NCBI GenBank assembly: GCA_945901125.1
Contig: CAMDKD010000001.1
Location: 70,894-102,893 of the forward strand
Reading direction: 5' to 3'
Source of the DNA: Bordetella parapertussis
GTDB taxonomy: Bacteria; Pseudomonadota; Gammaproteobacteria; Burkholderiales; Burkholderiaceae_C
Length of the DNA stretch: 32,000 bases
Made by a program: the position numbers and the translations under genes. Of the stretch, positions 10,803 through 28,891 are shown piece by piece; positions within the stretch are counted from its first letter, which is position 1; every line of letters starts with the position of its first letter. The notes under the pieces are model-generated. The model was not told the origin of the DNA. It made no database searches and worked only from the letters and a program-made list of their open reading frames with translations.

Positions 10803-10808
10803 AAACAC

Positions 10809-11921
10809 ATGGCAGATTTGCTTATCCAAGGGCTTCACAAATACTACGGCAACAACCATGTGGTCAAAGGCATAGACCTGTCCATACCTGCCGGGGAATT
10901 CACGGTGCTGGTCGGCCAATCCGGTTGCGGCAAAAGCACATTGCTGCGAACCATTGCCGGACTCGAATATGCCGATCAAGGCAGTTTGTCTATTGCCGGT
11001 CAACGTGTGAACGACATGCCGCCTAAGGACCGCGACATTGCCATGGTGTTTCAAAACTATGCGCTCTATCCTTACATGACGGTGTTCGACAACATCGCTT
11101 TCGGACTGCGCGCGCGCAAAACCCCGGCGGCCGAGATACCGGGCAAAGTACAGCGCGCCGCCGACATGCTGGCCATCAGCCACTTGCTGGACCGCTATCC
11201 GCGTCAGTTATCCGGCGGTCAGTTGCAGCGCGTAGCCATCGGTCGCGCGGTGGTGCGGGATGCGCGTTTGTATTTGTTTGACGAGCCCTTGTCCAACCTT
11301 GACGCACAACTGCGTGACGAGATGCGCGGCGAAATCAAGCGACTGCACCAGGAACTGGGCAAGACCATGATTTACGTCACTCACGATCAAATCGAAGCCA
11401 TGACGCTGGCTGACCGAATTGTGTTGATGCGCGAAGGCCAGATAGAACAACAAGGCGCACCGCTTGAATTGTTTGAGCATCCGCGCACCCGTTACGTCGC
11501 CGGTTTTCTGGGTTCACCGTCCATGAATTTCATTCCTGCGGTGCTGCACTCAGACAGCCATGGCTTGAACGCGCAGATTGCACCCGGTTTATCGCTGACA
11601 CTGCCCCCAGTGCGTTTCGGTCATTTGCAAAACAGAACTGGCACGGCCATAGAACTCGGCATACGGCCTGAACACATGCGCAAACAAGCGTCAGAGCACG
11701 AAGATATTGCGCGAATCAGTGTTGATATTGAATTGGTGCAGCCCACGGGTTCACGCACTTTTGTCGAATTCAAACTCGGCAATACCGCGACCGTTGCTGA
11801 GTTACTCGCCCGCGATGTGCATCGCAGCGGCGAGCGATTGGCATTGGAGATAGATATGAACCGCGTCATCGTCATCGATCCCGCCAGCGGCTTGGTGATT
11901 GCGAATGGCGTAACTGTTTGA
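10809..11921 (+). CDS. ABC transporter ATP-binding protein (UgpC/MalK-like)
   Basis: Walker A is GQSGCGKST, the signature is LSGGQLQRVAIGRA and Walker B is LYLFDEPLSNLD. A C-terminal regulatory/TOBE-like extension is present. Confidence 0.9.
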   Translation: MADLLIQGLHKYYGNNHVVKGIDLSIPAGEFTVLVGQSGCGKSTLLRTIAGLEYADQGSLSIAGQRVNDMPPKDRDIAMVFQNYALYPYMTVFDNIAFGLRARKTPAAEIPGKVQRAADMLAISHLLDRYPRQLSGGQLQRVAIGRAVVRDARLYLFDEPLSNLDAQLRDEMRGEIKRLHQELGKTMIYVTHDQIEAMTLADRIVLMREGQIEQQGAPLELFEHPRTRYVAGFLGSPSMNFIPAVLHSDSHGLNAQIAPGLSLTLPPVRFGHLQNRTGTAIELGIRPEHMRKQASEHEDIARISVDIELVQPTGSRTFVEFKLGNTATVAELLARDVHRSGERLALEIDMNRVIVIDPASGLVIANGVTV

Positions 11922-11940
11922 TTTTTTTCAGGAGCACACC

Positions 11941-13932
11941 ATGGCATTGGCTGAACCTTCCTCATTGATCAAAACCACTGGCACCTTGGAAGCCGACACA
12001 GCGGGCAAAACGCTGGTAGCAGGTGCGCTGTCCGTCGAATTTGACAACGGCAATTTGCGCTACATACGCCTCAAAGGTGTCGAGGTATTGCGTGCCCTCT
12101 CCTTTCTGGTGCGGGATGAAAATTGGGGCACTTACACGCCTGTGTTGCGTAATCTTTCTGTCAAGCAGCAGCCCAGTAGCTTTGTCATCAGTTACCAGGC
12201 CAGTTGCACACGCCAAGATCAATCGATTGACTACGAAGCGCATATCGAAGGCCATGCAGATGGCTCATTGATTTTTCGCGGCAAGGCCATACCGAAAACT
12301 GATTTTCTGACTGCGCGCACCGGTTTCGTTGTATTGCATCCGCTCACAGGCGTGGTCGGCCAGGCGCTCAAGGTTGAGCACGTAGACGGCACGGTGACAG
12401 AAAGTCAATTTCCTGAACAGGTCAATCCCGACTGCCCGTTCCGCAATATCAGAGCGCTGTCACACCAAGTGTTGCCCGGTGTATGGGCGCGTTGCGTCAT
12501 GCAAGGCGATGCGTTTGAAATGGAAGACCACCGCAACTGGACCGACGCGTCTTTCAAAACCTATGTGCGCCCGCTCTCGCGCCCCTGGCCTTACACCTTG
12601 CCTGCCGGTGAGGCGATTGAGCAATCGGTCAGCCTGCATTTTTCAGGACCGGTTCCCGGGCATGCTTCTTCAGCCAAAGCCGCGCCTTTGAAAGTTCGAA
12701 TAGGTTCGGTTTCTGACACCGTGATTCCATCCATAGGTCTGGGCGTTCCCGCTGAGGAAGCGGGCAACGCACTGTCTAAATTGTCATTGATGAAAAATCT
12801 GGCGCCCCAATTTCTGGTGTGCTTCTTCGATCCTCGCCAACACCACGGCGAGGCCTTGCTGCGTCAATACGCACAACTCAGCCGCGAGTTGCGTGCACAA
12901 GTGATGCTAGAAGTGGTGGTGCAAAGTCTGGACGGTTTTGCAGCCGAACTCTTGCAGGTAGCTGCTCATGCGCAGGCGGCTGGTTTGCAACCGGATATGG
13001 TGTGCGTATGTCCTGTGGGGCATTTAAAGTCTGTGCTGCCTGGCGGCATTTACCCGCCAGCACCTGAGTTGCATTCGCTTTATCTGGCGGCGCGCCAAGC
13101 TTTTCCGAAGGCACGACTTGGCGGTGGCATGTTTTCGTTTTTCACTGAGCTCAATCGCAAACGCCCGCCTTGCGAAGCCTTGGATTTCATCACCAATTCC
13201 ACCAGCCCCATCGTGCACGCTGCCGATGACCGCTCGGTCATGGAAACGCTGGAAGCCTTGCCTTGGCAGATTGAAACCGGCCAACATTTCTCCGGCGGCA
13301 AACCGCACCACGTGGGACCCAGCGGCATAGGCGCGCGCGACAACCCGCATGGTGCGCGTTACTCGGACAACACTAACAACAGTCGAGTTTGTCTCGCCAA
13401 AATGGACCCACGTCAGCGCGGTTTGTTTTCAGCTGCATGGACACTGGGCTATGTCAGCACGCTGGTTCATGCCGGGGTGGCGCGCATCAGCATGGCCGCA
13501 CCTACAGGTCCGCTGGGTGTGATGTATTCCCGCCAAGCAGATCAAGCTCAGCCGTGGTTTGATGGTCTGCCAAACCCAATGGCAGCGCACACGGTGTTTC
13601 CGGTGTTTCATACCTTGAGCTCTTTGAATTGCGCTTCAGGACACAAACTGCTGAATATCAGCAACAGCGATTCGCAACGGCTCGCCAGCCTGGGTTGGCA
13701 AGACGCCCAAGGCAAACGCATTTTGTTTGCCAACTTGAGCGCTCAAGCCTTGAAGATAGACCTGAGCGGCCTGAGCAAAAAAGCCTGCGCAGGCGTATTG
13801 GATGAACAGAGTTTTGTGCAAGCCTGTACGGATTCACACGCATTCCGTCTGGCCAGCCATTGGCTTGACAGCAAAAAAGGCTTGACCCTGGGCGCGTACG
13901 CCGTGGCCTGTGTGTTTGATCCAAAAGGCTGA
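11941..13932 (+). CDS. conserved protein of unknown function; last gene of the ABC transporter operon
   Basis: 663-aa ORF starting 19 nt after the ATPase stop, with host-like codon usage. I recognise no diagnostic motif. Confidence 0.6.
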   Translation: MALAEPSSLIKTTGTLEADTAGKTLVAGALSVEFDNGNLRYIRLKGVEVLRALSFLVRDENWGTYTPVLRNLSVKQQPSSFVISYQASCTRQDQSIDYEAHIEGHADGSLIFRGKAIPKTDFLTARTGFVVLHPLTGVVGQALKVEHVDGTVTESQFPEQVNPDCPFRNIRALSHQVLPGVWARCVMQGDAFEMEDHRNWTDASFKTYVRPLSRPWPYTLPAGEAIEQSVSLHFSGPVPGHASSAKAAPLKVRIGSVSDTVIPSIGLGVPAEEAGNALSKLSLMKNLAPQFLVCFFDPRQHHGEALLRQYAQLSRELRAQVMLEVVVQSLDGFAAELLQVAAHAQAAGLQPDMVCVCPVGHLKSVLPGGIYPPAPELHSLYLAARQAFPKARLGGGMFSFFTELNRKRPPCEALDFITNSTSPIVHAADDRSVMETLEALPWQIETGQHFSGGKPHHVGPSGIGARDNPHGARYSDNTNNSRVCLAKMDPRQRGLFSAAWTLGYVSTLVHAGVARISMAAPTGPLGVMYSRQADQAQPWFDGLPNPMAAHTVFPVFHTLSSLNCASGHKLLNISNSDSQRLASLGWQDAQGKRILFANLSAQALKIDLSGLSKKACAGVLDEQSFVQACTDSHAFRLASHWLDSKKGLTLGAYAVACVFDPKG

Positions 13933-13953
13933 TGGCTTGTCGGTGAAACTCAG

Positions 13954-14649
13954 TCAAAGCGGCAGAGTTTTACCGTCGTAATTCAAAAATGCACCCGATT
14001 GTTTGAGCGTCAAGCCACGGAATCTGGCCAGCAGCCCGGCAGCGCTTTCCTGCGGACTGATGTCTGCACCAGCGCCACCCATGTCGGTACGTACCCAACC
14101 GGGGTGAAATGAAGTCACGGTGATGCCGGAAGATTTGAGTTCATGCGACAAAGTCACCATCAAATTGTTTGCACCTGCTTTAGATGCGCGGTAAAAGTGT
14201 GCAGATGTACCCTCGTGCTGTTGGCTTCCCATGTAGGAAGAGATGATGGCGATGCGCGGGTTTTTGCTGGTCTTGAGCTGGCTTAAAAAAGCCCGGGCAG
14301 TGAAAAATGGTCCCGCCATGTTGGTCATCAAGACCTCTGAAATAGCGGCTGCGTTGTTGTCGGTGTCTTCGATACCGCCGCGAGCACTGATGACACCGGC
14401 GTTGCACACCACCACATCGATAGAGCCTTTGACCTGAGCGGCAATCGCATTCAGCGCTGCCTCGTCGCAGGCGTCGGCGGCATACACCACGCCAGCTCCT
14501 TTGGATGCTGCAACCAATGCATTCAATTCGGTGGCCTGCGCAGGCTGACGGCAAATGGCGATCAAGCGGTCGCCGGCGGCGAGGATGCTCCGGGACATTT
14601 CTAGGCCGATGCCACGGTTGGCGCCGGTGATGAGGTAGGTGTCTGACAT
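13954..14649 (-). CDS. short-chain dehydrogenase/reductase (SDR)
   Basis: Trimmed to the ATG at 14649 (MSDTYLITGANRGIGLEM, TGxxxGxG motif). NAG is present (VVCNAGV) and the catalytic YxxxK is YRASKAG. Confidence 0.85.
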   Translation of the reverse strand: MSDTYLITGANRGIGLEMSRSILAAGDRLIAICRQPAQATELNALVAASKGAGVVYAADACDEAALNAIAAQVKGSIDVVVCNAGVISARGGIEDTDNNAAAISEVLMTNMAGPFFTARAFLSQLKTSKNPRIAIISSYMGSQQHEGTSAHFYRASKAGANNLMVTLSHELKSSGITVTSFHPGWVRTDMGGAGADISPQESAAGLLARFRGLTLKQSGAFLNYDGKTLPL

Positions 14650-14792
14650 TTTTTCTCGATCCATTGGTAAAAAGATATTTCTCAAATGTAACCAATTGAA
14701 AACACAGTCTTTTCATGATTCTTTAATAAGCAGTGGCAATCATCAATAATGATGCAATAATGCATCAATTTTTAAACTTAAAAGATCATTCC

Positions 14793-15002
14793 ATGCGAAC
14801 AACTGTGACCATTGATGACGAGCTTTATGCCCAGGCGCTGGAAGTAATTGATCCAGATATTGAAAAATCAGAACTTTTTCGCGAAGCACTGAAAGTATTT
14901 GTTCGCGTGGAATCAGCAAAGCGGCTAGCCGCCTTAGGCGGCATGGCACCGGCAATGAAATCCATACCCCGAAGACAAGCCAAACCAGCTTTGAATTCTT
15001 GA
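14793..15002 (+). CDS. vapB: type II antitoxin, VapB-like (ribbon-helix-helix/DUF2191-like)
   Basis: The internal ATG at 14793 gives MRTTVTIDDELYAQALEV, the usual antitoxin N-terminus. The stop lies 1 nt before the PIN toxin start. Confidence 0.7.
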   Translation: MRTTVTIDDELYAQALEVIDPDIEKSELFREALKVFVRVESAKRLAALGGMAPAMKSIPRRQAKPALNS

Positions 15003-15003
15003 C

Positions 15004-15381
15004 ATGGTGTTAGTGGACACCTCGGTCTGGGTACAACACTTCAGACAAAACAACCCCTATTTAGGCCATTTATTAAGCAATGACTTGGTACTGTGTCATC
15101 CCTTTGTTTTGTTGGAAATCGCTTGCGGCTCGCCGCCGTCGCCGCGACAACAAACTTTGGCATACCTCGGCAAATTACAAAAGATAAAAACAGCGACCAC
15201 GACAGAGGTTTTGAATTTCATTGAGTCGCAAGACCTGTACGAATCAGGTTGTGGGGCTGTAGATATCTCTCTGCTGGCATCTGTGCTTATCACGCCAAAT
15301 GCAAAACTGTGGACATTGGATAAAAAATTACATGCACTAGTCATCAAAACCAAAGTAGCGTTTGATACTTTGACGCAGTGA
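15004..15381 (+). CDS. vapC: PIN-domain ribonuclease toxin VapC
   Basis: 125 aa. The conserved acidic residues are D5 (MVLVDTSVW), E38 (LLEI), D87 (AVDISLL) and D106 (WTLDKK). Confidence 0.85.
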   Translation: MVLVDTSVWVQHFRQNNPYLGHLLSNDLVLCHPFVLLEIACGSPPSPRQQTLAYLGKLQKIKTATTTEVLNFIESQDLYESGCGAVDISLLASVLITPNAKLWTLDKKLHALVIKTKVAFDTLTQ

Positions 15382-15400
15382 TTTTAATTTGAAGAGATGA

Positions 15401-15412
15401 TTATTCCCACTC
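15401..15412. repeat. distal att copy: displaced remnant of the guaA 3' end (E-W-E-stop)
   Basis: TTATTCCCACTC here matches CTACTCCCACTC at 22985-22996 at 10 of 12 positions, with an 8-bp identical core TCCCACTC. It sits 19 nt after the vapC stop, exactly at the composition boundary. Confidence 0.6.
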
Positions 15413-15633
15413 AGTAGTTACTTGAATAAAATAGTCAATAAAATCAATAGGTTGCGTAACTTAAAAAACAGCGTGTAAGTTTTGTGCTACTTTTTTCATT
15501 TTTAACCCTTTAGTTCAACTAACGTAACCTATTCTTAATCAACGCTTAAGTGCCGCTTAGGTTACACAGGCTGTTGTGGGAAAGTGCTACAACGAAAAAA
15601 CACAAGCGCTCTTAATTATTTGCCATCATACAC

Positions 15634-15662
15634 GTGACATAGCACGCCATACAGCTTAAAAT
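15634..15662 (+). promoter_or_regulatory. candidate sigma70 promoter for the acyltransferase operon
   Basis: GTGACA (15634-15639), a 17-nt spacer and TAAAAT (15657-15662), about 30 nt upstream of ATG 15694. AGGA lies about 10 nt before the start. Confidence 0.35.
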
Positions 15663-15693
15663 TATTTCTAAATTTTAACAGGATTTTTGCTAA

Positions 15694-17703
15694 ATGAAAT
15701 ATAGAAAAGAGATAGACGGACTGAGGGCGTTAGCTGTATTACCCGTCATCTTGTTCCACGCAGGCTTTACAACTTTCAGCGGTGGCTTTGTAGGCGTTGA
15801 TATCTTCTTCGTAATTAGTGGCTATCTAATCACCACAATCATCGTAGATGAGATGGATAAGGGTTCATTTTCACTTCTTAACTTTTACGAACGAAGAGCC
15901 CGAAGAATCTTACCAGCCTTATTTTTTGTAATCCTGTGTACGCTTCCATTCGCTTGGTTTTGGATGTTACCGCAAGACTTGAAAAGCTTTTCACAAAGTT
16001 TAGTAGCCGTTCCACTCTTTGCCTCAAACGTTCTTTTTTGGCTTACAAGCGGTTACTTTGATACTGCCTCTGAGCTTAAGCCTTTGCTTCATACTTGGAG
16101 CTTAGCTGTTGAGGAACAGTACTATGTCTTGTTCCCACTATTCTTAATGCTTGCTTGGAAATTAGGTAAAAAGTGGATTATTTCCTTACTAATAATAGTT
16201 GCTATTGTTAGCGTATCTGCCGCGCAATATGGCTCAACAAACCATCCATCATTCACCTTTTATCTGTTACCAACACGGGCTTTTGAGATACTTATTGGAG
16301 CCTTAATATCTTTGTATATTAATCACAAACAAAGTATAATTTCAGTCAGTCAGTCAGTCAGTCAGTCAGTCAGTCTGGCTGGTTTGGCACTTGTTCTTTA
16401 CGCAATATTCGCTTTTGATAAGAACACACCATCCCCAAGTTTATACACACTTATACCAACAGTCGGCGCTGGTTTAATTCTAGTATTTGCGAACAACAAA
16501 AACATAGTTGGCAAACTACTGGGAAGTAAAGTAGCTGTAGGAATTGGTTTAATAAGTTATAGCGCTTACTTATGGCATCAGCCATTGCTAGCCTTTGCTA
16601 GATTAAGAAGCATCAATGAACCAAGCCATTTATTGCTTGGACTATTAGCAATGCTATCAATTTTGATGGGTTACTTAAGTTGGAAATATATTGAAACTCC
16701 ATTTAGAAATAAAAATACAATCAGACGTAATTCAGTCTTTGTTTGTAGCGTTACAGGAAGTATTTTTTTTATAGCTATTGGGCTTTATGGACATCTTACA
16801 AAAGGGATTCCAAACAGATTGCCCGCAAGTTCAGCTTCCATTTTCTTTGCCGTTAATGATAAAAACCCAAGGCAAGCCGAATGTCATTTTGGAACAGAAA
16901 AATTTCCTAAACCTCAAGATTCGTGCGTATTAGGAAGCCTAGATAATATACAAGGTGCTCTGCTTGGAGATTCACACGCTGATGCTATTTCCTATGAGTT
17001 AGAGAAAAATCTTGAACTAAAAAATTTAGGATTTTTGAGCCTAACTTACTCTGGATGCCCACCCATACAAAATGTTTATCGAGTAGATGCTCCAATAACA
17101 AATAAATGTTATGAATATAACGAACAAACATTCAGATTTTTACTACAAAATCCAAAAATTCATTACGTAGTTCTATCAGCTAGATGGACTTTATACCTCG
17201 AAAAAAATAGGTACAACAATACTGAGGGAGGTATTGAGGATGGGGAAGATGCGTTTATTGATGTCGTTAGTAACGGCAACAGAAAAATTAATGATGAATT
17301 AACTAGAAAAGATTTAGTAAAGAAAAGTTACCGTACAACAATTGAAAATTTACTACAAGCTGGTAAAAAGGTAATCGTTGTCTACCCAATACCAGAAGTA
17401 GGATGGGATGTTCCAGTTAGACAATTAAAGAAAATATTATTTAACGAGTCAAATGTTGAACCTATAACAACATCCTATTCATCTTTCCAAGTTAGAAATG
17501 AGTCAACAATAAGGGCGCTTGATTCAATTCCCAGCAATGTAAATCTTATACGAATAAAGCCAGAAAAAATTCTTTGTAATAGCTTTATTAAAGATAGATG
17601 TATCACTCAAATTGACTCTAAAATTCTCTATTATGATGACGATCATTTGTCGAATGAAGGAGCTAAGCTGGTAATTAACGAGGTAATGAAGTTTGTAAAG
17701 TGA
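15694..17703 (+). CDS. OafA/YrhL-type acyltransferase-3 membrane domain fused to a C-terminal SGNH domain (surface-glycan O-acyl/acetyltransferase)
   Basis: 669 aa. The AT3 N-terminus is MKYRKEIDGLRALAVLPVILFHAG followed by FFVISGYLIT, with about 10 hydrophobic segments. SGNH block I is LLGDSHADAIS and block V is YYDDDHLSNEGA. Confidence 0.9.
   Translation: MKYRKEIDGLRALAVLPVILFHAGFTTFSGGFVGVDIFFVISGYLITTIIVDEMDKGSFSLLNFYERRARRILPALFFVILCTLPFAWFWMLPQDLKSFSQSLVAVPLFASNVLFWLTSGYFDTASELKPLLHTWSLAVEEQYYVLFPLFLMLAWKLGKKWIISLLIIVAIVSVSAAQYGSTNHPSFTFYLLPTRAFEILIGALISLYINHKQSIISVSQSVSQSVSLAGLALVLYAIFAFDKNTPSPSLYTLIPTVGAGLILVFANNKNIVGKLLGSKVAVGIGLISYSAYLWHQPLLAFARLRSINEPSHLLLGLLAMLSILMGYLSWKYIETPFRNKNTIRRNSVFVCSVTGSIFFIAIGLYGHLTKGIPNRLPASSASIFFAVNDKNPRQAECHFGTEKFPKPQDSCVLGSLDNIQGALLGDSHADAISYELEKNLELKNLGFLSLTYSGCPPIQNVYRVDAPITNKCYEYNEQTFRFLLQNPKIHYVVLSARWTLYLEKNRYNNTEGGIEDGEDAFIDVVSNGNRKINDELTRKDLVKKSYRTTIENLLQAGKKVIVVYPIPEVGWDVPVRQLKKILFNESNVEPITTSYSSFQVRNESTIRALDSIPSNVNLIRIKPEKILCNSFIKDRCITQIDSKILYYDDDHLSNEGAKLVINEVMKFVK
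16342..16375 (+). repeat. perfect tetranucleotide microsatellite (TCAG)8 plus TC inside the acyltransferase CDS
   Basis: Counted base by base: TCAG x8 spans 16342-16373 and TC follows. The tract begins on a codon boundary (16342 - 15694 = 648) and is read as SVSQSVSQSVSL. Confidence 0.95.
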
Positions 17704-17732
17704 AAGTAATTTAATCAACAAAGGAGAAGGCT

Positions 17733-17945
17733 ATGAATCGCATTGAACAGATTAAGTTAGAACAAAAGAAGTTGGCAGACGAACTTGAAAGCGAGATGCT
17801 AAAAGAACGTGCCAATGTACTTGCGAGGATGAAGGAAGACATTAAGTTGTTTGGCTTTAAGACTAGTGACTTTAAGGGTGTACTTGCTACACGCAAAAAA
17901 CGTGGCACAGCGGTTAAGAAAGTTGTAGCTAAAAGTAAACCTTAA
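17733..17945 (+). CDS. small coiled-coil protein resembling the N-terminal oligomerisation domain of betaproteobacterial H-NS, without the DNA-binding domain
   Basis: 70 aa with RBS AAGGAG 7 nt upstream. The heptad-like region is IEQIKLEQKKLADELESEMLKERANVLARMKEDIKLFGFKTSDF, which compares with the H-NS pattern ...yGLTxeDl. It ends in a basic tail RKKRGTAVKKVVAKSKP and has no TWxGRG-type motif. Confidence 0.45.
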   Translation: MNRIEQIKLEQKKLADELESEMLKERANVLARMKEDIKLFGFKTSDFKGVLATRKKRGTAVKKVVAKSKP

Positions 17946-17962
17946 ACGAAACAGGTACAACT

Positions 17963-18766
17963 ATGCCAGCTCCTAAAATTCCTCGTAAGCCCATTCCTAA
18001 GTTCACAAAAGCTGAACTTAATAGAGCCAATCTTTGTGCTGAAGCACTTTGGTATGGAGTGAATTTTAAGACTGGTGACTTGTACCCTATCAGTGACGCA
18101 AACTTAATGAGCAGATTTGCGTTTAACTTTTACCATTACCACAAGAATAAGAAGAAGTTCCAGCCCGATATTTTTGTGGCTGATGTTCGTGAATTAATCT
18201 TAGCTTGTGGCATTAAGATGCTATTTCGCGGTATAGCTGAAATGGACTTAAGAAAAGGAATTAACAGTCTGTATAAAGACGTTTATCCGCTCTTTCAAAA
18301 GTCACTTAAAAGTCCAAGTAGAGTTAGCTCACATCAAGTCGCGGTTAAGTGTTTAGAAAGCTTAAGCAAAGGGCTTGTTAAAAACCCAGCCGCAAATCGT
18401 CTTAATCTTGCGTCACGCATACTGTTCTTCTTATTGCCAAACATACAGGCGTTTAATATGAATAATAGTGTTGCTATATTTTTCGGTTTACAAACACGTC
18501 CTCATCATCATTACACTGAATACTTTGAGTTGTTTAGCAAGGGATTGGTTACTAACCAAACTAACTTAAGCAAGTACAAGATGCCACCAGCACGTGATGA
18601 TTTAGACGTAGTAACTTGGAATGAAGCAAGCAGAACTGATTGGTGGAAAAGACGTGTGCTGGACTTAGCTGTGCTACTACACACAAGTCCAAACATATCT
18701 GTGTACCCTAATCTACGCTATATGATTAAACAGCAGATTAAAGCTGACAAGCTAAGCCAACCTTAA
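17963..18766 (+). CDS. hypothetical protein, 267 aa, third gene of the acyltransferase operon
   Basis: The ORF starts 17 nt after the previous stop and has island-like AT-rich codon usage. It has no motif I can assign. It appears helical and contains NLASRILFFLLPNIQAFNMNN. Confidence 0.6.
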   Translation: MPAPKIPRKPIPKFTKAELNRANLCAEALWYGVNFKTGDLYPISDANLMSRFAFNFYHYHKNKKKFQPDIFVADVRELILACGIKMLFRGIAEMDLRKGINSLYKDVYPLFQKSLKSPSRVSSHQVAVKCLESLSKGLVKNPAANRLNLASRILFFLLPNIQAFNMNNSVAIFFGLQTRPHHHYTEYFELFSKGLVTNQTNLSKYKMPPARDDLDVVTWNEASRTDWWKRRVLDLAVLLHTSPNISVYPNLRYMIKQQIKADKLSQP

Positions 18767-19428
18767 ATTAGCTCAATCGCTTTCCGTTTCATAGCGTCGT
18801 TGACGTCTATATAGCATTGTGTTGTGCTGATGTTAGCGTGTCTAGCAATGCTTTGTAATACCCTAACTGACACGCCTTTGTCAGCTAAATTGGTAATCGC
18901 CGTACGACGCGGTGAATGTGAACTAGCACCATCAATCCCAACATTGCGGAATAAGTGATGGAAGAATTGGCATAGCGTGTTGCTATTCCAACCTTCAATT
19001 GGACGCTTTTGTGAATAAAACAGCTTGTCAGTAATTGATTTATACGGCACAGCTTTAACGTAAGCTTGTAGCTCTTTGCGTAGCTTATCGCTTACAAATA
19101 CTGTCCCAGTCTTGCTACCTTTAGTCTGTTCTGCGCTTAAGTAAATCTCAGCTTTAATCTTGCCCTCAGTGTCTAATACGTCCGCATAACGCAAGCTAGC
19201 ACATTCCTTAACCCTTAATGCGGCATACAGCATTGTTAAAAACATTGCCCTATTGCGTTCTGCGTGTGGACGTGTTGCCACGTAGTCCAATACCCTACGT
19301 GTTTCTGTGGCTGTTAGCGTTTTAGCTTGTTTAGACATTAGTGCTCTCCTTAATGTAAGCTTTTCAATGTCTAAAGTGTATTTTCTTTGTTTCTTAATTC
19401 CTACCGATTTTTTGTCAAGCTGTGTCAA
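18763..19428 (-). CDS. small tyrosine recombinase (catalytic domain with a short N-terminus)
   Basis: 221 aa. The catalytic signature residues, in order, are R (AALRVKE), HxxR (SSHSPRRTAIT), H (IARHANI) and Y (TTQCYIDV). Its stop overlaps the convergent 267-aa gene's stop by 2 nt; the two convergent ORFs overlap over 18763-18766 (CTTAAA). Confidence 0.85.
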   Translation of the reverse strand: MTQLDKKSVGIKKQRKYTLDIEKLTLRRALMSKQAKTLTATETRRVLDYVATRPHAERNRAMFLTMLYAALRVKECASLRYADVLDTEGKIKAEIYLSAEQTKGSKTGTVFVSDKLRKELQAYVKAVPYKSITDKLFYSQKRPIEGWNSNTLCQFFHHLFRNVGIDGASSHSPRRTAITNLADKGVSVRVLQSIARHANISTTQCYIDVNDAMKRKAIELI

Positions 19429-19471
19429 TTAGAAATCCTCAATGATTACGCCAACTTAGCGTATGAATAGC

Positions 19472-19505
19472 AAAAAACCAAAGCTTTTACTTATTAGCTT
19501 TGGTT
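19472..19505 (-). terminator. candidate Rho-independent terminator (minus strand) downstream of the rep-like gene
   Basis: AACCAAAGCT (19476-19485) pairs perfectly with AGCTTTGGTT (19496-19505) around a 10-nt loop. On the minus strand the stem is followed by TTTT. Confidence 0.5.
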
Positions 19506-19827
19506 CTGTATTTATTGGATTTTGAAGCTGATTGCGTGATTTTTAAGCAGACTTACGTATAAGCCCTACACGCTGTTTTAAGCTAGCCCAGCTACCCAAG
19601 CTTAGCTCAGCTTGCTTTAAGCGTTTGTAGCTTGTTTAATTCAGCCTACTGTAGCTTTGCTGTTGTAGACACGCTCAGTGTTAGCTTTACTCTGTTACTT
19701 TAAGTTTAAGTTTTGACTGTTTCAGTGTTAGCTTTAAGTGTTTACTAGAATTTAGACAAAGCTTCGCCAATTAAAGCTAACAAGCTTTATTAAAATCAGC
19801 AAGATCCAAACGTGGGCGTTAGTGCTG
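19506..19827. other. iteron-like, AT-rich noncoding region (candidate origin: dso or oriT)
   Basis: There is no ORF of 60 aa or more. TCAGTGTTAGCTTTA is repeated exactly at 19675-19689 and 19722-19736. CTTTAAG and TAGCTT/AGCTTAGCT motifs also recur. The region lies directly downstream of the HUH Rep-like gene. Confidence 0.4.
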
Positions 19828-20352
19828 TTAAGCTAAGTGCCAAAGCACGTTATCCGTGTCTTTAGTACCTAGTTCTTTTGTGATGTATTCCATCCAACCG
19901 CTATCTGTAATATCAACCTTATGCTCAGCGTCAATATGTTCAACGTGTAGTTTCGCGTTTGTAACAAGCGTATCAAATTGATTAAACTTAACGTGACTTG
20001 GTAAACCGCCAATAGCAAAGTGTAAGTGTAAGTTTTTGCTACTACGCTCACCCTCAACTACTGGTAGATACATAAGCGTGTATCCAAACTTGTCAGCGTT
20101 ACGCTTACCAAATACTTGTCTGTTTAGTTTTTGTGTAAAGCGTTTAGCAATACGCTCACAGTCAGTACGTGTCAGCTTACGCTTATACGTGCCTCTGTCA
20201 GTTGTTTCTACAATAGTCTGCTTGAGTGTTAATGTTAGAGCTAGCGGAAATTCCTTACTCATACCACTTAACCACGTGCGTGTTGCCGCCTTTTGCGTCG
20301 GCAAGGCGTTTGGGTTATAGGCTGTACGAATGCGTATTTCTTGTAGTTTCAT
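19828..20352 (-). CDS. HUH-superfamily rolling-circle Rep/relaxase-like protein
   Basis: Three RCR motifs occur in canonical order: motif I LALTLTLK, motif II (HUH) NLHLHFAIGG and motif III (YxxK) WMEYITKEL. The start is taken as ATG 20352 (MKLQEI); the track uses TTG 20367. Confidence 0.6.
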   Translation of the reverse strand: MKLQEIRIRTAYNPNALPTQKAATRTWLSGMSKEFPLALTLTLKQTIVETTDRGTYKRKLTRTDCERIAKRFTQKLNRQVFGKRNADKFGYTLMYLPVVEGERSSKNLHLHFAIGGLPSHVKFNQFDTLVTNAKLHVEHIDAEHKVDITDSGWMEYITKELGTKDTDNVLWHLA

Positions 20353-20372
20353 ACTAGTATTTAGCAAGAACC

Positions 20373-20396
20373 AAAGGAAACAAGATATTTTCCTTT
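20373..20396. promoter_or_regulatory. perfect 8-bp inverted repeat in the divergent rep / 145-aa-gene control region (candidate operator)
   Basis: AAAGGAAA (20373-20380), an 8-nt spacer and TTTCCTTT (20389-20396), located between the divergent starts at 20352/20367 and 20458. Confidence 0.3.
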
Positions 20397-20457
20397 AGGT
20401 TGTCCTTAACGTAATCTGAAACTACAGTACAAATTCCTTAACTAAACGGAGATTTGT

Positions 20458-20895
20458 ATGTCAGTTATTGCCAAACTAAAGCTTATTGCTAGCAAACGCG
20501 AGCATAACCATAACCCTATTATTGTTCGTCGCAATAAACTTGCTTTGAAACTAGATGAACAACTAGCACTTTGTACAGCACAAAAAGAAGGACGTTTGTA
20601 CGCACCTAAGCGTATTAAGACTGTGACTAACGCTGATGGTGAACGTGTAAGTGTTGAAACTACCAAGCGTGTTAAAGAATGGTTTTGGACTACGAGCACA
20701 GGCAAGATTAACTTGGCTGTGCGCTATGGTAGCAAAGTGCTGGAGCTTAGCAAGGGTAAGAATGCGATTGAATTGAGTACGGGTGAAGAGCTTATCGCCA
20801 CTTTGAGTTTGCTTAAAGATGCTGTTATTGCTGGCGAACTGGATGACGCTATTACTAACGCAAGCGATAAGTTACGTTCTGGCTTTTCTAAATGA
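20458..20895 (+). CDS. hypothetical protein, 145 aa (resembles proteins seen next to integrases in genomic islands; family not named)
   Basis: The ORF has an upstream GGAG, is divergent from rep, and shows charged helical composition (KRVKEWFWTTSTGKINLAVRYGSKVLELSKGKNAIEL). Confidence 0.55.
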   Translation: MSVIAKLKLIASKREHNHNPIIVRRNKLALKLDEQLALCTAQKEGRLYAPKRIKTVTNADGERVSVETTKRVKEWFWTTSTGKINLAVRYGSKVLELSKGKNAIELSTGEELIATLSLLKDAVIAGELDDAITNASDKLRSGFSK

Positions 20896-20901
20896 TTGAT
20901 T

Positions 20902-20929
20902 AAGGACTGGCTACCAATAGTCAGTCCTT
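20902..20929 (+). terminator. weak hairpin after the 145-aa gene
   Basis: AAGGACTG and CAGTCCTT form a perfect 8-bp stem around a 12-nt loop, followed by GTCTTCTATTCTC. The U-tract is poor. Confidence 0.3.
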
Positions 20930-20968
20930 GTCTTCTATTCTCGCTAAATATAAGAATAGGAGACAATT

Positions 20969-21490
20969 ATGCGGATTAGTGAGATAACAGACGCACAAGG
21001 GCAGTTGGAGTTACTACGCACAGTAATTGACAACACTTGGACAGCAATAGCACAGCAGGCGGAACAAGAGAAACGTGCTGAGGCTGAACGTAAGGAAAAA
21101 GCTAAGCTTAAGCCACGTAGTCATAAGCCTATATCCATTCCTAAAGCACCTTCACCACCCCCACTTAAAAAGCCTAAGCCACCCCTAAGTAAACAACCAA
21201 CCCCCACACCTAATGTACCCAACCCTAACAAAGCAAATACCATAACTCCTGTACGTAGCACAACAAAACCTATACCCAATTTTCAACCCCAAGCTAACCC
21301 CCAACTTAAGCCCTTACCTAATAACGCACCTACGTCAGTACAAAACACGCCTAATCCGCCAAAAGATGGGTATTTAGACAAGAATATAGGCGTAATTAAA
21401 AAAGACGAACGTGGGGATGAAAGGCATAGTAAAAATGGTATACGCACTCTTAAAAAATTACCGCGCAATTTTCAGTACCCAAGTACTTAA
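20969..21490 (+). CDS. proline-rich low-complexity protein, 173 aa
   Basis: RBS AGGAG lies 6 nt upstream. The N-terminal helical/coiled segment (QQAEQEKRAEAERKEKAK) is followed by about 90 aa of P/K/N/T-rich sequence (KAPSPPPLKKPKPPLSKQPTPTPNVPNPN). Confidence 0.5.
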   Translation: MRISEITDAQGQLELLRTVIDNTWTAIAQQAEQEKRAEAERKEKAKLKPRSHKPISIPKAPSPPPLKKPKPPLSKQPTPTPNVPNPNKANTITPVRSTTKPIPNFQPQANPQLKPLPNNAPTSVQNTPNPPKDGYLDKNIGVIKKDERGDERHSKNGIRTLKKLPRNFQYPST

Positions 21491-21534
21491 GCTTTTGGGG
21501 TGGTGATTTTTTACCTATACCCCCACCTTATAGC

Positions 21535-22824
21535 TTACTTAGGAATCAGTAAGCCATCTTTGTAATAGTACTGTGGCATAGCGTTTTCTATCATCTTGCG
21601 TTCTGTCGTATGGTAATAAGTCTTCTCAATTTGAGCCGTACTTGTTCCACAAGTTTCAGCTACTTGAGTTGGTGAAGCGCCCTTATTAATCATATCGGTA
21701 ATGAAGTAGTGGCGGAAACTATACGGCACTAAATCTCTCACTTCTCTATTCTCAATTTCACAGCGTGTGAGTATCTCGTCAAAGTGGTAAAGGATTACAC
21801 GTGGAGTTAAAGCACTTAAGCCGTCCGTACTAAACGCTAATGTTTTGGCAAATGGCGTTGCTTTCTTGTTGTCTTTATGCGCCTTAGCGTATCTCGTATG
21901 TAGGAATGTGTATAAGTCACTAAAGTATTCCCAATCCTTTATTACAAAGCTCCTCGTCTTCCTAACCTTAGTTGTCTTGCCTCTTACCGTTATCTTTACT
22001 AAGCTGTAAGGATTTCCGTCTTCTTCCCCTTTAACGTGCTTTTCCATCCAGCTAATGTCAGCCCAAGTTAGCTGTAATTGCTCCCCTCTACGTAAGCCAG
22101 TAATGATTGCTATAAGCAAATAATAGGCTGTAATGACTTTATTAAGATTGCCATACAAGCTTAAGTCTTGCTTGGCTTCTTTAATATAGCTTTCAAGCTC
22201 AGTCTTAATGGCAACTATTTCTTCGTCTGTAAATGTGTTGCGCCTGTTCTTTTCATCACCTGTATCTACTTTAGGTAGCTTCTTAAAGTCAAATGCTTCA
22301 ATATAAGTTTCGCCACGCTTATGTAGCCAACTCATCATTGCGTTAATCGTACTTTGTTCGTTAAGTATGGTTGTACGACTGACTGGTAATTTCTTTTTAT
22401 TCTTCGTACGTTCGTGAAAATAGTTCTCACAGTCTGTACGTTCCATCTCCTTAAGCTTGGTGTCTTTGCCAATAAACTTAAGCCAATGCTCTAAGTGTGT
22501 TTTGATAGTGCTAAGCCTACCTTTAACGATTAACTCTGCTTCAGCATCTTTAGCTCTTTGCTTAACGTACTCCTCTACACCTTGCTTAGATGTCATTGAA
22601 AAGTACGTCTTGCCTGCTAATTGCTGTGCCATTAGCTCGTGATAGTACTTCTTAGCCTTTGCCTCTGCTGTATCTCTATTTCTTGTTCGTAGACTGAAAC
22701 GTGCGTACTTCTTTTCCTTAGCCAACCACATACGCATCTGCCAATACTCACCTCGTGTGTAGATTAAGGCTTCTTCGTAAATGGCTATTTCATTGGGCTT
22801 TAATGATGGTTTTTTTAGTGGCAT
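21535..22824 (-). CDS. int: tyrosine integrase (phage-integrase family) of the island
   Basis: 429 aa. The catalytic residues are R in GLRRGEQLQLTWADI, box II in PYSFRHYFITDMINKG, and Tyr in IEKTYYH. The gene is 160 nt from the guaA stop and runs in the same direction as guaA. Confidence 0.9.
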   Translation of the reverse strand: MPLKKPSLKPNEIAIYEEALIYTRGEYWQMRMWLAKEKKYARFSLRTRNRDTAEAKAKKYYHELMAQQLAGKTYFSMTSKQGVEEYVKQRAKDAEAELIVKGRLSTIKTHLEHWLKFIGKDTKLKEMERTDCENYFHERTKNKKKLPVSRTTILNEQSTINAMMSWLHKRGETYIEAFDFKKLPKVDTGDEKNRRNTFTDEEIVAIKTELESYIKEAKQDLSLYGNLNKVITAYYLLIAIITGLRRGEQLQLTWADISWMEKHVKGEEDGNPYSLVKITVRGKTTKVRKTRSFVIKDWEYFSDLYTFLHTRYAKAHKDNKKATPFAKTLAFSTDGLSALTPRVILYHFDEILTRCEIENREVRDLVPYSFRHYFITDMINKGASPTQVAETCGTSTAQIEKTYYHTTERKMIENAMPQYYYKDGLLIPK

Positions 22825-22984
22825 ATGGGATTAAAGTTACCTACGAAATTGAATAGCTACAGTTTTGTGTAGCTTTACGTGTAACTTTAATTCCACTGCC
22901 TAATAAAATCAAGCACTTGTTTGACTTGTGAAAGTTTTGTGTAACTACAAAACCTATATAAATCAAGTACTTATATAAAGAAAA

Positions 22985-22996
22985 CTACTCCCACTC
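22985..22996. repeat. proximal att copy, forming the present guaA stop and last three codons
   Basis: CTACTCCCACTC is the complement of GAG TGG GAG TAG. It pairs with 15401-15412. Confidence 0.6.
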
Positions 22997-24637
22997 TATC
23001 GTCGCCGGCGGTTTGCTGCTCACATCCATCACCACCCTGTTGATACCGCGCACTTCGTTGATGATGCGCCCCGATACTTTTTTGAGCAAACCATAGGGCA
23101 ATTCAGCCCAATCTGCCGTCATAAAGTCGCTGGTGATGACTGCGCGCAAGGCCACCACGTAATCGTAGGTGCGGCCATCGCCCATGACACCGACAGACTT
23201 CACCGGCAGAAAAACAGCGAACGCCTGGCTGGTGGCTTCGTACCAATTGCGTGGCGCTTGCGTGCCGCCGAATGCCACGGCTGACACATCGCCAGTGAAC
23301 GGCGTGTTTCGCAGTTCTTCTATGAAGATGGCATCTGCTCTGCGCAGCAAATCTGCATATTCAGATTTCACTTCGCCGAGTATGCGAACGCCCAAACCAG
23401 GCCCGGGAAACGGATGGCGGTACACCATGTCGTAAGGCAGTCCCAGTGCCACGCCGAGTTCGCGCACTTCGTCTTTGAACAAATCGCGCAGCGGCTCTAA
23501 CAATTTCAAACCGAGTTGCTCAGGCAAACCACCGACGTTGTGGTGGCTTTTGATGGTGACAGCTTTTTTGCTTTTCGCGCCGCCGCTCTCAATCACGTCA
23601 GGGTAAATCGTGCCTTGCGCCAAGTAGGTGGCGCCCTTGTGTCCGCCGTCCCCTGCTTTGAGTTTGGCCGCTTGCTCTTTGAACACAGTAACAAATTCAG
23701 CGCCAATGATTTTGCGTTTGGCCTCGGGGTCGCTGACACCTGCGAGCTTGCCTAAAAACAATTCGCTGGCATCCACACGTATGACGCGCGCATGCAGTTG
23801 GCCTGCAAACATTTGCATGACCGCATCGCCTTCGTTCAGTCGCAATAAACCGTGATCGACAAACACGCAGGTCAGTTGATCGCCGATGGCGCGGTGTATC
23901 AAGGCCGCAGCCACCGATGAATCCACGCCGCCGGACAAGCCCAGAATCACTTCTTCATCGCCGACTTGTTGACGGATACGCGCCACGGCTTCATCCACAT
24001 AACCGGTCATCACCCAATCGGCCTTGGTGTGGCAAATATCCAGCACAAAGCGATGCAGCATGGCTTTGCCTTGCACCGTGTGTGTCACTTCAGGGTGAAA
24101 TTGAACACCGTAAAAATGCCGCGCCTCGTCGGCGATCCCAGCGATTGGACAACTGTCGGTGCTGGCCATCAGTTTGAAGCCGGGCGGCAACTCTGTCACT
24201 TTGTCGCCGTGGCTCATCCACACTTTCAGCATGCCGTGGCCTTCAGGCGTGGTGAAGTCTGCAATGTCTTTGAGCAAAGCTGTGTGGCCGCGCGCGCGCA
24301 CTTCGGCGTAGCCGAATTCACGCTGATGCCCGCTTTCCACTTTGCCGCCGAGTTGCTGCGCCATGGTTTGCATACCGTAGCAAATGCCAAGCACCGGAAT
24401 GCCCAACTCGAACACCAATGACGGCGCGCTGTCTGTGTCGTCTTCATAAACGCTTGCGTGGCTGCCGGACAAAATAATGCCTTTGAGCATGCCGTCAGCA
24501 GCGTAGTCACGCAGCCATTCGTTGGTCACATCGCAGGGATGGACTTCGCAATACACATGCGCTTCGCGCACTCGCCGCGCGATCAGTTGCGTGACTTGCG
24601 AGCCGAAATCAAGAATCAGGATTTTGTGGTGTGCCAT
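22985..24637 (-). CDS. guaA: GMP synthase (glutamine-hydrolysing)
   Basis: 550 aa. It has [22 protein letters not shown], the GATase Cys in GICYGMQ, the ATP-PPase P-loop LSGGVDSSV, and the C-terminus KPPATIEWE. Confidence 0.97.
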
Positions 24638-24675
24638 GGAAGTTCTGAAATGCAGACAGTCATGTCAAAGGGAAG

Positions 24676-26577
<1,902 letters not shown>

Positions 26578-26581
<4 letters not shown>

Positions 26582-27012
26582 CGCTGGTACACCGCTTCCG
26601 CACGTTTGATAAAGGCATCGACCAGGGTGGAAGCGATTTTGTCGAACACCGGTCCAACGATGGCGCCGAACATGGAATCGAAGCTGTAAGAGAGTTTCAG
26701 CTCGACGCGGCAGGCTTGCTCTTCGCCCACAGGGATAAAGTCCCACACGCCAGAAAGATGTTTGAAAGGCCCGTCGATCAAATCGAGTTTGACTTGTCGC
26801 CCGTCAATATGCGTGTTGGCAGTGGTGAAACTTTTGTGCAAACCGCCGAACGCCATGCCTATGCGCGCTGTCATGCCGTCGTCTGTGGTGGTGAGAATAT
26901 CGGCCTTGTCGCACCAAGGCAGAAACTGCGGGTACGAGGGCACATCGACGATCAAATCGAACATTTCCCGGGCGCTGAACCAGATCAATACAGACTTCTC
27001 AACGGTTTTCAT
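26578..27012 (-). CDS. ratA: SRPBCC-family RatA / Coq10-like protein
   Basis: Trimmed to ATG 27012 ([34 protein letters not shown]), giving 144 aa. It is divergent from smpB, as in many proteobacteria. Confidence 0.8.
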
Positions 27013-27082
27013 AGAATGCAGTTCATGCCACACTGGCGTTGCGGGCGATTGTAAAGACCCCGTTGTATCCAATTTCCCTCTT

Positions 27083-27556
27083 ATGGCCAGCAAAACTGCA
27101 CCCCAAACCCGTATCGCGGACAACAAAAAAGCCGCCTTCAACTACTTTTTCGAGGAACGCCTGGAAGCAGGCATGGTCTTGGAAGGGTGGGAAGTCAAAG
27201 CTGCGCGCGAGGGAAAAGTGCAGTTGACCGACGGCTACGTGGTGATTCGCAGCGGCGAGATGTACGTCATCGGTTGTCAAATCAACCCCTTGAAAACCGC
27301 GTCCACCCACGTGAACCCGGACGCCATACGCTCGCGCAAATTGCTGCTTCACAAAGAAGAAATCCGGCGCTTGATCGGCAAGGTCGAGCAAAAAGGCTAT
27401 ACGCTGGTGCCGCTGAATTTGCATTGGAAGAACGGACGCATCAAATGTGAAATCGCACTGGCAAAGGGCAAGGCCGAACACGATAAGCGCGACACCATCA
27501 AGGACCGTGAAGGCAAGCGCGAAGTCGAACGCGCCATGAAACAACGCACCCGCTGA
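27083..27556 (+). CDS. smpB: SsrA-binding protein SmpB
   Basis: Trimmed to ATG 27083 ([39 protein letters not shown]), giving 157 aa, with a basic C-tail. The longer track ORF overlaps ratA on the opposite strand. Confidence 0.95.
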
Positions 27557-27562
27557 AGCCGC

Positions 27563-28240
27563 TCAATCCACCCAGGACGCGCGCCCTGCCTGCATCATCA
27601 AACGCCGCTCGCAGCGCTTGGACAAAGCCTGGTCATGAGTGACAAGCACCAGCGTGGTACCCAATTCTCTGTTTAACTCAAGCATCAACTGCATGATGGT
27701 CTCGCCGGTGGCGTGGTCCAGGCTGCCGGTGGGCTCGTCTGCCAAAAGCACTTGCGGCTTGACCACAAAAGCGCGCGCCAGTGCCACGCGCTGCTGCTCG
27801 CCGCCACTCATCACCTTGGGGTAATGGTTTAAACGCTCCGCCAGTCCGACACGCACCAAGATGTCTTTGGCCACGGGTTTGGGGTCGGGATGAGCAGCAA
27901 GCTCCAAGGGCAGCATGACGTTTTCAAGCGCAGTCAAGGCCGACAGCAATTGAAAGCTTTGAAACACAAAGCCTATGTGTTGAGACCGTAAACCAGCCCT
28001 GTCGTCTTCGTTCAAGGCAAACATATCCTGGCCGGCCAGATGCACCGTTCCTTGCGTCGGCGTGTCCAGTCCGGCAATGATGGCCAGCAAAGTGCTTTTG
28101 CCCGAGCCTGAAGCGCCGACGATGGCCACAGTTTGCTGAGGATCTAACTCGAAATCGATATCGCGGAGAATGTCCAAGGTACCGGTGGCATCGGTGACCG
28201 ATTTGTACAAATGAGAGACAGCAATCAGTGGTGAGGACAT
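27563..28240 (-). CDS. ABC transporter ATP-binding protein (YbbA/LolD-like)
   Basis: Walker A is GASGSGKST, the signature is [14 protein letters not shown] and Walker B is [12 protein letters not shown]. It is divergent from a tesA-like gene, as in E. coli tesA-ybbA. Confidence 0.85.
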
Positions 28241-28243
28241 TCA

Positions 28244-28891
28244 GTGAGATCCGTGTTGAGACGCAGAGACTTTAACTTGCAAGCCTTAAGCCTGTGCGCT
28301 TCGGGTCTATCGCCCGCCGTGCTGCGGGCCGCAGAACGAAAAACCATGTTGATCGTCGGCGACTCTTTGAGCGCCGAATACGGCATCGCTCGCGGCAGCG
28401 GTTGGGTGGCCTTGCTGGCCGCTCAACTTGCCAAAGATAAACCGCAATGGCAGGTGGTCAATGCCAGCATCAGCGGCGACACCACTGCCGGCGGACTGGC
28501 TCGCCTACCGGCTTTGCTGCAACAACACCAGCCGTCACTGGTGGTCATTGAACTCGGCGGCAATGATGCGTTGCGCGGTTTTTCATTGAAGATGACTGAG
28601 GGCAATTTGACAGGCATGATCACTGCCTGTCAGAAAATCAAAGCTTCAGTTTTGTTAATCGGTATGCAGGTGCCGCCCAATTACGGCGAGGGTTATGCCA
28701 AGGATTTCAGCCGTATGTTTCAAACCATCAGTCAAAAACAAAAGACATTGCTGGTGCCTTTTTTGCTCAAAGGCATTGCCGATGCAGCAGACCCGACAGC
28801 CTTGTTTCAAGCGGACCGCATACACCCCAAGGCCGAAGCGCATCCGCTGATACTGGCGAATGTCTGGCCTGTGTTGAAGAAGATGCTCTGA
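28244..28891 (+). CDS. SGNH/GDSL arylesterase, TesA-like (thioesterase I / lysophospholipase L1)
   Basis: Block I is LIVGDSLSAEYG, followed by ELGGNDALRG and DRIHP (DxxH). The GTG start gives an RRRDF-containing signal-like N-terminus. The start is uncertain. Confidence 0.8.
   Translation: MRSVLRRRDFNLQALSLCASGLSPAVLRAAERKTMLIVGDSLSAEYGIARGSGWVALLAAQLAKDKPQWQVVNASISGDTTAGGLARLPALLQQHQPSLVVIELGGNDALRGFSLKMTEGNLTGMITACQKIKASVLLIGMQVPPNYGEGYAKDFSRMFQTISQKQKTLLVPFLLKGIADAADPTALFQADRIHPKAEAHPLILANVWPVLKKML

Follow-up and report, generated by a model that had tools for sequence, protein, structure and literature searches.

Directly downstream of guaA, the gene for GMP synthase, the 32-kb window analysed here (the whole stretch of 32,000 nucleotides (nt), from contig CAMDKD010000001.1) carries a segment of 7,584 bp with a low content of guanine plus cytosine (GC). 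The gene for a tyrosine integrase (int) lies at its guaA end, and further inside are the genes for an O-acyltransferase, a small replication protein (Rep) and a second, short tyrosine recombinase, together with other open reading frames (ORFs) (Table 1). The segment lies between two copies of an 8-bp sequence, one of them within the last guaA codons. Our results suggest that window positions 15405-22988 are a 7.6-kb site-specific integrative element, one of a large family of currently mobile, guaA-specific islands in freshwater Betaproteobacteria, and we put the probability of this reading at roughly 0.87. Comparison loci are designated by L numbers and sequencing runs by X numbers.

Table 1. 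Features of the element and of its flanks (window coordinates; aa, amino acids; att, attachment site; a dot marks features given without strand).
Feature	Position	Strand	Remarks
vapB/vapC toxin-antitoxin pair, flank outside the element	14733-15381	+	VapB Pfam 4.4e-07; VapC NCBIfam match weak
attR core TCCCACTC (= GAGTGGGA on the guaA strand)	15405-15412	.	same as guaA end in empty site L082
Far-end arm	15413-15560	.	conserved up to the core in L136, L138, L142, L146, L150, L094
Cargo: AT3 + SGNH O-acyltransferase, OafA/OafB type, 669 aa, ORF intact	15694-17703	+	Acyl_transf_3 1.4e-32; SGNH 7.7e-51
(TCAG)8.5 tract within the acyltransferase ORF, in frame, encoding SQSVSQSVSQS	16342-16375	+	
Conserved basic coiled-coil-like ORF, 70 aa	17733-17945	+	
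Conserved backbone ORF, 267 aa	17963-18766	+	present in L136, L142
Second tyrosine recombinase, short (221 aa), catalytic domain only, about the size of FimB/FimE	18763-19428	-	Phage_integrase 1.5e-26
Iteron-like intergenic region, repeated AAGCTA(A/C) and AAAGCTAACACTGA motifs	19540-19800	.	candidate Rep origin
Small HUH rolling-circle Rep, 174 aa from ATG	19828-20352	-	
DUF6641 protein, divergent from Rep	20458-20895	+	Pfam 4.8e-14; phrog_31551 1.6e-22
Proline-rich ORF, 173 aa	20969-21490	+	counterpart in L136
Integrase, 429-aa tyrosine recombinase, full length for its family	21535-22824	-	Pfam PF00589 5.9e-12
int-side arm, including the new last base and stop of guaA (G TAG)	22825-22988	.	
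attL core TCCCACTC, within the last guaA codons	22989-22996	.	empty-site join 15404 to 22989, 8 shared letters
guaA (GMP synthase, 550 aa), target gene, left intact	22985-24637	-	

An earlier note on this DNA, made from its letters alone, had claimed that the terminal codons of guaA recur at the far end of an inserted island around an identical 8-bp core, and its coordinates and sequences are correct: positions 15401-15412 read TTATTCCCACTC, positions 22985-22996 read CTACTCCCACTC, and the two have the exact core in common. This repeat is by itself not significant. The window holds two exact copies of the 8-mer against 0.58 expected, and at least two copies were present in 14 of 100 shuffles; the case for the boundaries therefore rests on external comparisons.

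In support of these boundaries, a metagenome contig found with VapC (L082) carries the empty site. It aligns at 95.5% identity to window positions 14741-15412 and then, again at 95.5%, to 22986-24372; the two aligned stretches overlap by 11 bp, and vapC is joined directly to guaA at the core. The vapC flank ends in this alignment with ...GATGATTATTCCCACTC and the guaA flank begins with TCCCACTCTATCG..., which puts the junction within TCCCACTC. Thus, the empty vapC-guaA site that the earlier note had proposed to look for does exist in a closely related strain. Moreover, a Logan contig of 1,693 nt from lake runs X3/X4 joins position 15404 to position 22989 and omits 7,584 bases, with 8 letters fitting both sides, and vapBC likewise lies beside guaA in three more distant genomes (L083-85, ~67% identical).

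The end of guaA tells the same two states apart. In the empty site the gene ends GAG TGG GAA TAA, like the displaced original end that is still readable in the window as positions 15401-15404 plus the attR core, and in the occupied site it ends GAG TGG GAG TAG. The G TAG that the element brings next to the core lets guaA retain its last Glu codon and a stop. As read from these gene ends, the element supplies guaA with a synonymous last Glu codon and a new stop, which agrees with the replacement gene end previously supposed, and the original A TAA end now lies 7.6 kb away, beside vapC. On these alignments the boundaries of the element are proven to the base.

Base composition follows the boundaries on one side. 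GC content changes from 0.55-0.58 to 0.32-0.43 between ~14.7 kb and position 22,985, with means of 0.386 (0.39) for the island, 0.439 for vapBC and 0.553 (0.55) for the host. The composition drop had been said to match both boundaries. On the right it does so sharply (0.376 to 0.568 at position 23000); on the left it does not, and low GC runs on through vapBC to ~700 bp beyond the true element end. Since vapBC adjoins guaA in the empty sites L082-L085, it is therefore flank and not cargo, despite its GC content of 0.44. Note that this pair, with its GC of 0.44 vs 0.55 for the host, already stands beside guaA in the ~67% identical genomes (L083-85), and it was possibly acquired at this guaA hotspot long ago and has since become fixed.

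Inside the two cores, the ends of the element are laid out as for an integrase of the lambda type, which has core-type as well as arm-type sites. The attP sequence on the guaA strand is AACTAC-T-GAGTGGGA-GTAGTT, that is, a 6-bp inverted repeat flanking a 9-bp spacer with the shared core, and both arms contain paired GTTACAC-type heptamers (GTTACACAAAA[C/G]TTACAC) as well as TTGATTT motifs. The far-end arm holds the half-site GTAGTT (15414-15419), AAATCAA (15441-15447) and the heptamer pair GTGTAAG/GTGCTAC (15473-15490); the int-side arm holds GTGTAGC (22867), GTGTAAC (22879, 22939), AAATCAA (22906, 22960) and the half-site AACTAC (22983-22988). Three of the four copies of GTGTA[AG]C on the plus strand of the 32-kb window fall within 22867-22945. 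The integrase would presumably bind both kinds of site.

The integrase itself was rightly described in the earlier note as a 429-aa tyrosine recombinase directly downstream of guaA and running in the same direction. Its gene starts 161 nt past the last guaA base, and this spacing recurs in all of the loci with called genes on both sides (7/7). The protein has 1,589 homologues, many of them 80-98% identical. In the family alignment R246, R371, H372 and Y404 are invariant, Y368 invariably stands at the His of HxxR, and T394 occupies the usual His/Trp position; most tyrosine recombinases have His at the HxxR position. A sequence search of the integrase against PDB gave no match, IMG/VR held no relative of it, and its tblastn search of a plasmid collection was without match, whereas a P4-type integrase matched 673 records there. 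Megablast of the whole island against plasmids and phages also found no match.

The comparison with other hosts indicated that the unit between the two cores moves. The same guaA-int junction is present in independent assemblies (L001, L136 and L137), and complete copies of the element occur in L136 (7.5 kb), L142 (7.8 kb), L146 (5.7 kb) and L150 (an Orrella sp. genome, 7.7 kb). All four are bounded by GAGTGGGA and all have the conserved arms, so the sharing of the core by other copies, on which the earlier note had made its interpretation depend, is found. The L136 island is 94-100% identical to the window inside the element (int side), while nucleotide identity in guaA is only 65-70%; the switch between the two levels lies precisely at the core, and the DNA past its far end is unrelated to vapC. 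A hybrid guaA produced in L136 by homologous recombination was considered and ruled out by this position of the switch in sliding identity. In the L142, L146 and L150 hosts, the GuaA protein is 71-82% identical. Moreover, an identical 449-aa integrase was found in four contexts, between which GuaA protein identity is only 69-78%. An identical integrase in such divergent hosts implies very recent transfer across deep host lineages, at the level of family or order.

What these islands share, and what they vary, could also be read from the comparison. The backbone of Rep, DUF6641 protein and short recombinase recurs in L136, L142-144 and L150, where the other cargo found on it is NeuB plus a formyltransferase, or a C5 DNA methylase. 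Other members of the family have the integrase alone, with or without the short recombinase, and carry type I restriction-modification or SNF2-plus-methylase cargo; Rep is absent from members with other backbones (L146-149). The variable end of the family islands, as annotated from these copies, carries surface-glycan or restriction-modification cassettes. In the lake runs X2, X5-X7 and X9, the backbone (18700-19700, 20490-20750 and 22530-23010) is 3-10x deeper than the acyltransferase cargo, and in run X2 the backbone segments are also deeper than the chromosomal flanks. This pattern indicates many co-occurring islands that have one backbone with other cargo or other hosts.

Two loci show further states of the site. 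In L146 (15565-15600), the far-end core is followed directly by GTGATTTAAGGTCTTTCGGGGACTATCG, the start of another, P4/GIsul2-type, island family that is also found after guaA in L009, L031, L034 and L037; two island families are stacked on one core in L146. In L016 (11633-13650), guaA is followed by a 2-kb low-GC remnant that retains the int-side arm; of the integrase gene only the first codons (MPLKK...) are left, fused to unrelated ORFs, and a second core is absent. This locus had been a candidate for a second full copy, which was ruled out; it is a decayed remnant of the family.

Across the family, the att forms are all present on one core: attB in L082-85, attL and attR in the window, L136, L142, L146 and L150, and an attP-type junction in L138 and in run X5. 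The first 121 nt of the L138 junction are 96% identical to the far end of the window, and the core, the int-side arm and int follow; in run X5, a contig of 120 nt has the same arrangement with that run's own right-end variant, 22974 T>G. The family thus displays the set of att forms that an active site-specific integrative element would produce, a statement that applies to the family and not to this individual copy. After excision, the circle would be replicated by the HUH Rep from the iteron region, and the short second recombinase would resolve multimers; the element would then spread without conjugation genes of its own, via helper elements, particles or transformation. The copy in the window would retain the ability to excise, as the earlier note had also thought likely; the empty sites come from other strains.

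Several points weigh against the proposal of a currently mobile element. All run data are assembled contigs, in which rare variants drop out. The circular junction suggested in the earlier note was recovered for the family as the attP-type junctions of L138 and X5, which could be circles or tandem arrays, and stacking of islands does occur (L146); for the window's own copy, no attB or attP excision product was found in the contigs of eight runs, and contigs identical to the window (X1) have the occupied state only. The integrase has Tyr for the His of HxxR and Thr at the His/Trp position, and its activity is presumed on comparative evidence only. The window Rep itself stays under the Pfam thresholds, and its fold matches are weak (E ~0.01). 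Finally, no excisionase or AlpA-like gene was found among the ORFs in the family scans.

An alternative is a fixed passenger, an island acquired once and now immobile, in which strain differences arise by homologous recombination of the flanks ('replacement' flexible island). The missing excision product of this copy, the lack of a recognised recombination directionality factor, the existence of degenerate remnants such as L016 and the nonsense codon in the L136 cargo gene would all fit such an island. We consider it unlikely, since identity breaks exactly at the 8-bp core and not within the flanks, the identical integrase is shared by hosts that differ at the level of family or order, attP-type junctions exist, and the integrase ORF and both att sites are intact. 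Rather less probable is a phage origin, either as a filamentous (inovirus-like) prophage in decay or as a phage satellite packaged with the aid of a helper phage. In its favour, the Rep is of the ORF2/G2P family, which inoviruses share, the family islands are 5.7-7.8 kb in size, a proline-rich ORF stands beside the DUF6641 gene, which has a PHROG counterpart, and the cargo, which matches the O-antigen acetylases of PHROG (2e-163), is a typical phage moron. Against this, none of the ORFs scanned against Pfam and PHROG matched a morphogenesis (Zot-like) ATPase, a coat or capsid protein or a terminase, the phage collection and IMG/VR gave the negative results already mentioned, and Rep is missing altogether from the family members L146-149. 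That the 8-mer has no significance by itself would fit a repeat that arose by chance where composition changes, or a chimeric assembly; this reading is refuted by the guaA-int junction in three independent assemblies and by the clean empty sites, and we attach next to no probability to it.

The closest known system by insertion site is GIsul2, which inserts at the guaA 3' end at 5'-GAGTGGGA-3' and whose integrase was shown to mediate excision and integration there (PMC9376610). The core in the window is identical to this experimentally proven one, so the earlier note was right to call the site a documented GIsul2-type hotspot. The further possibility, that the element belongs to the GIsul2/PIME family of integrative mobilisable elements hijacking IncP-type conjugation, has in its favour the same gene end, the same core and the occurrence of P4/GIsul2-type integrases after guaA in other Comamonadaceae (L009, L019, L037, L039). 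Note that these form a separate group. The window integrase gave a BLASTP E of 0.14 and a profile-profile (hhalign) probability of 0.55% against the GIsul2 integrase of pAB3, and to judge from these scores and from the plasmid search it lies outside the GIsul2 lineage (P4-like, N-terminal MLTD...). PIMEs are defined by int, alpA, a replicase, trbJ and trbL (bioRxiv 10.64898/2026.01.12.698999), and in the family scans no island ORF of at least 70 aa matched alpA, repA/repC or trbJ/K/L. Of the PIME gene set, only an integrase and a replicase of a different type were detected here, and membership is refuted on these defining features; we hold it to be very improbable.

The resemblance to GIsul2 (a 15.4-kb sul2/ars island of Shigella, Acinetobacter and IncC plasmids), to PIMEs and to IncP islands is nevertheless one of site and plan. 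As occurs with these elements, the guaA 3' end is used at an identical core (PMC9376610, PMC5704250), and, as in GIsul2 and PIMEs, the integrase lies beside guaA and faces inward, the guaA end is regenerated and a replication module is present (PMC9376610, PMC5704250, bioRxiv 10.64898/2026.01.12.698999). Unlike GIsul2, the window element has a small HUH Rep, a DUF6641 protein and a second short recombinase, is half the size, carries a glycan acetyltransferase instead of resistance genes, as the earlier note had pointed out, and belongs to planktonic freshwater Betaproteobacteria. The use of the guaA 3' end by unrelated integrases was already known from Tn5801, ATE-1 and the IncP islands (PMC5704250). 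Tn5801-type elements and ATE-1 of Gram-positive bacteria resemble the window element in this site and in having short direct repeats as core; they differ in phylum, in their 11-bp core, in being conjugative or larger and in carrying tet(M). What is known, then, is a tyrosine-integrase island at the guaA hotspot, and what is new is the different integrase lineage and backbone.

The tycheposons of marine plankton are the nearest analogue of the element in organisation and ecology. Tycheposons (Prochlorococcus and other streamlined plankton) are likewise small integrative elements that carry cargo: a tyrosine integrase at one end faces inward, a small replication module may be present, the cargo serves defence or adaptation, conjugation genes are absent, and the elements stack at fixed sites, in planktonic hosts (bioRxiv 10.1101/2020.12.28.424599). 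There are two differences: the target here is the end of a protein-coding gene and not a tRNA, and the replication protein is an HUH Rep and not a primase/helicase.

The cargo gene was correctly recognised in the earlier note as an acyltransferase with a repeat tract. Its AT3 and SGNH domains are matched in Pfam and the whole protein in PHROG, and this strong family match is a likeness to phage-borne O-antigen acetylases; PADLOC gave no defence-system match. By analogy with H. influenzae oafA, a phase-variable O-acetyltransferase gene with GCAA repeats (PMC10505976), the (TCAG)8.5 tract is a candidate for slipped-strand switching, and phase variation of the acyltransferase, which the earlier note had stated outright, is plausible on the same ground. 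As in H. influenzae OafA, the protein is an AT3-family sugar O-acetyltransferase with an in-frame tetranucleotide tract; unlike there, the unit is TCAG and the tract lies mid-gene in the membrane domain. The only other copy, in L136, likewise has 8 units, and no length variants were seen in L136 or in the run contigs, which break at the tract. In lake runs X1-X3 and X5, (TCAG)n 31-mers reach a word depth of 10^4 to 10^5, orders of magnitude above the neighbouring sequence, which means that the tetranucleotide repeat must be very common in those lake communities. The acyltransferase gene of L136 (6075-8025) has a nonsense codon (KSIS*SLV vs KSFSQSLV in the window) and a strongly divergent SGNH domain; the gene is thus mosaic and possibly inactivated there.

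Among the backbone genes, the Rep proposed in the earlier note is confirmed as an HUH rolling-circle Rep by the agreement of its motifs, of Pfam matches in its homologues and of a predicted fold. The motifs LTLTLKQ, HLHFAIG and EYITKE are invariant in the family, and PF23343 (REP_ORF2-G2P) is matched by 11 of 18 family members (best 4.6e-06). The AlphaFold2 (AF2) model has a mean predicted confidence (pLDDT) of 80, and its top Foldseek matches are the nuclease domains of adeno-associated virus (AAV) Rep and parvovirus NS1 (probability 0.9-0.97, E ~0.01); a sequence search against PDB gave no match. The iteron-like region next to the gene would, from its repeats, be a candidate for the Rep origin. 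The short recombinase, also foreseen in the earlier note, has NCBIfam XerA and invertase-like matches below the cut-off and is conserved in L136, L142 and L147-150. The DUF6641 protein is conserved in L136, L142-144 and L150.

The smaller ORFs are less easily named. The 70-aa ORF had been taken for a truncated H-NS-like protein, an assignment that we reject, as no H-NS similarity was found in Pfam or PDB searches: it has no Pfam match even at E 10 and no PDB match with the single sequence or with a profile. It has 1,159 homologues, of which the best 120 are 66-78 aa long without a Pfam domain in any of them; this likeness in length marks it as a bona fide short protein and not a truncation. 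The 267-aa ORF had no family match in the domain and family scans, and a 152-aa ORF stands at its position in L150, which does not imply a relationship between them. At the position of the proline-rich ORF, L144 and L150 have ORFs of 136 aa.

The chromosome around the element is that of a Limnohabitans-like member of the Comamonadaceae. The closest GuaA match is from a Limnohabitans metagenome-assembled genome (91%), and synteny with the Limnohabitans locus L002 covers window positions 22961-31231 (guaA, guaB and everything upstream) and ends at the guaA stop codon. L002 was dropped as a candidate empty site because its DNA downstream of guaA is unrelated. The exact GuaA look-up returned one match only, the second copy of the same guaA-int junction (L001), and exact-protein look-ups of the integrase, VapC and a short-chain dehydrogenase/reductase (SDR) gave no match. 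Searches of the window for tRNA genes and Rfam families were negative.

Elsewhere in the window, a tadA-like deaminase/hydrolase gene (1-717) lies close to guaA, or to the island there, in L142 and L016, and the 14 kb between it and vapBC (717-14700) appear to be extra relative to these two loci. This interval encodes a pyridoxal phosphate (PLP) enzyme, an Asp/Asn hydroxylase, an aldolase, an ATP-binding cassette (ABC) sugar transporter, a 663-aa ORF and the SDR; the 663-aa ORF (11941-13932) has a host-like GC content and no Pfam match at E 1e-4. On the other side of guaA, the guaB ORF as called (24676-26328, 550 aa, GTG start) extends ~60 codons beyond what aligns to its homologues, and the true start is probably an internal Met downstream of the called GTG.

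Full-text literature searches found no description of this element family. We would give even odds to the broader view that the window holds the first delineated member of an abundant miniature integrative-replicative family absent from the searched literature, built of an integrase, an HUH Rep and a second small recombinase. Such a family would have converged on the GIsul2 core GAGTGGGA through an integrase lineage without detectable specific similarity to the GIsul2 integrase, and would shuttle glycan-modification and restriction-modification cassettes across family and order boundaries of freshwater Betaproteobacteria without conjugation genes, as a freshwater counterpart of tycheposons that is anchored to a protein-coding gene.

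Two tyrosine-integrase lineages without detectable specific similarity that use one 8-bp crossover sequence are a clean natural case of convergent target choice. To our knowledge, the core encodes the invariant C-terminal E-W-E of GuaA, and it is therefore present in essentially every bacterium. Our results suggest that the GIsul2 site is accessible to elements from a much larger pool than work on resistance would lead one to expect. With the att sites resolved to this level, occupied and empty states can be tracked directly in metagenomes. O-antigen modification and restriction-modification are traits thought to drive phage-host microdiversity, and the family offers a specific vehicle, defined at the sequence level, by which abundant lake bacteria (for example Limnohabitans and relatives) can exchange genes of both kinds.

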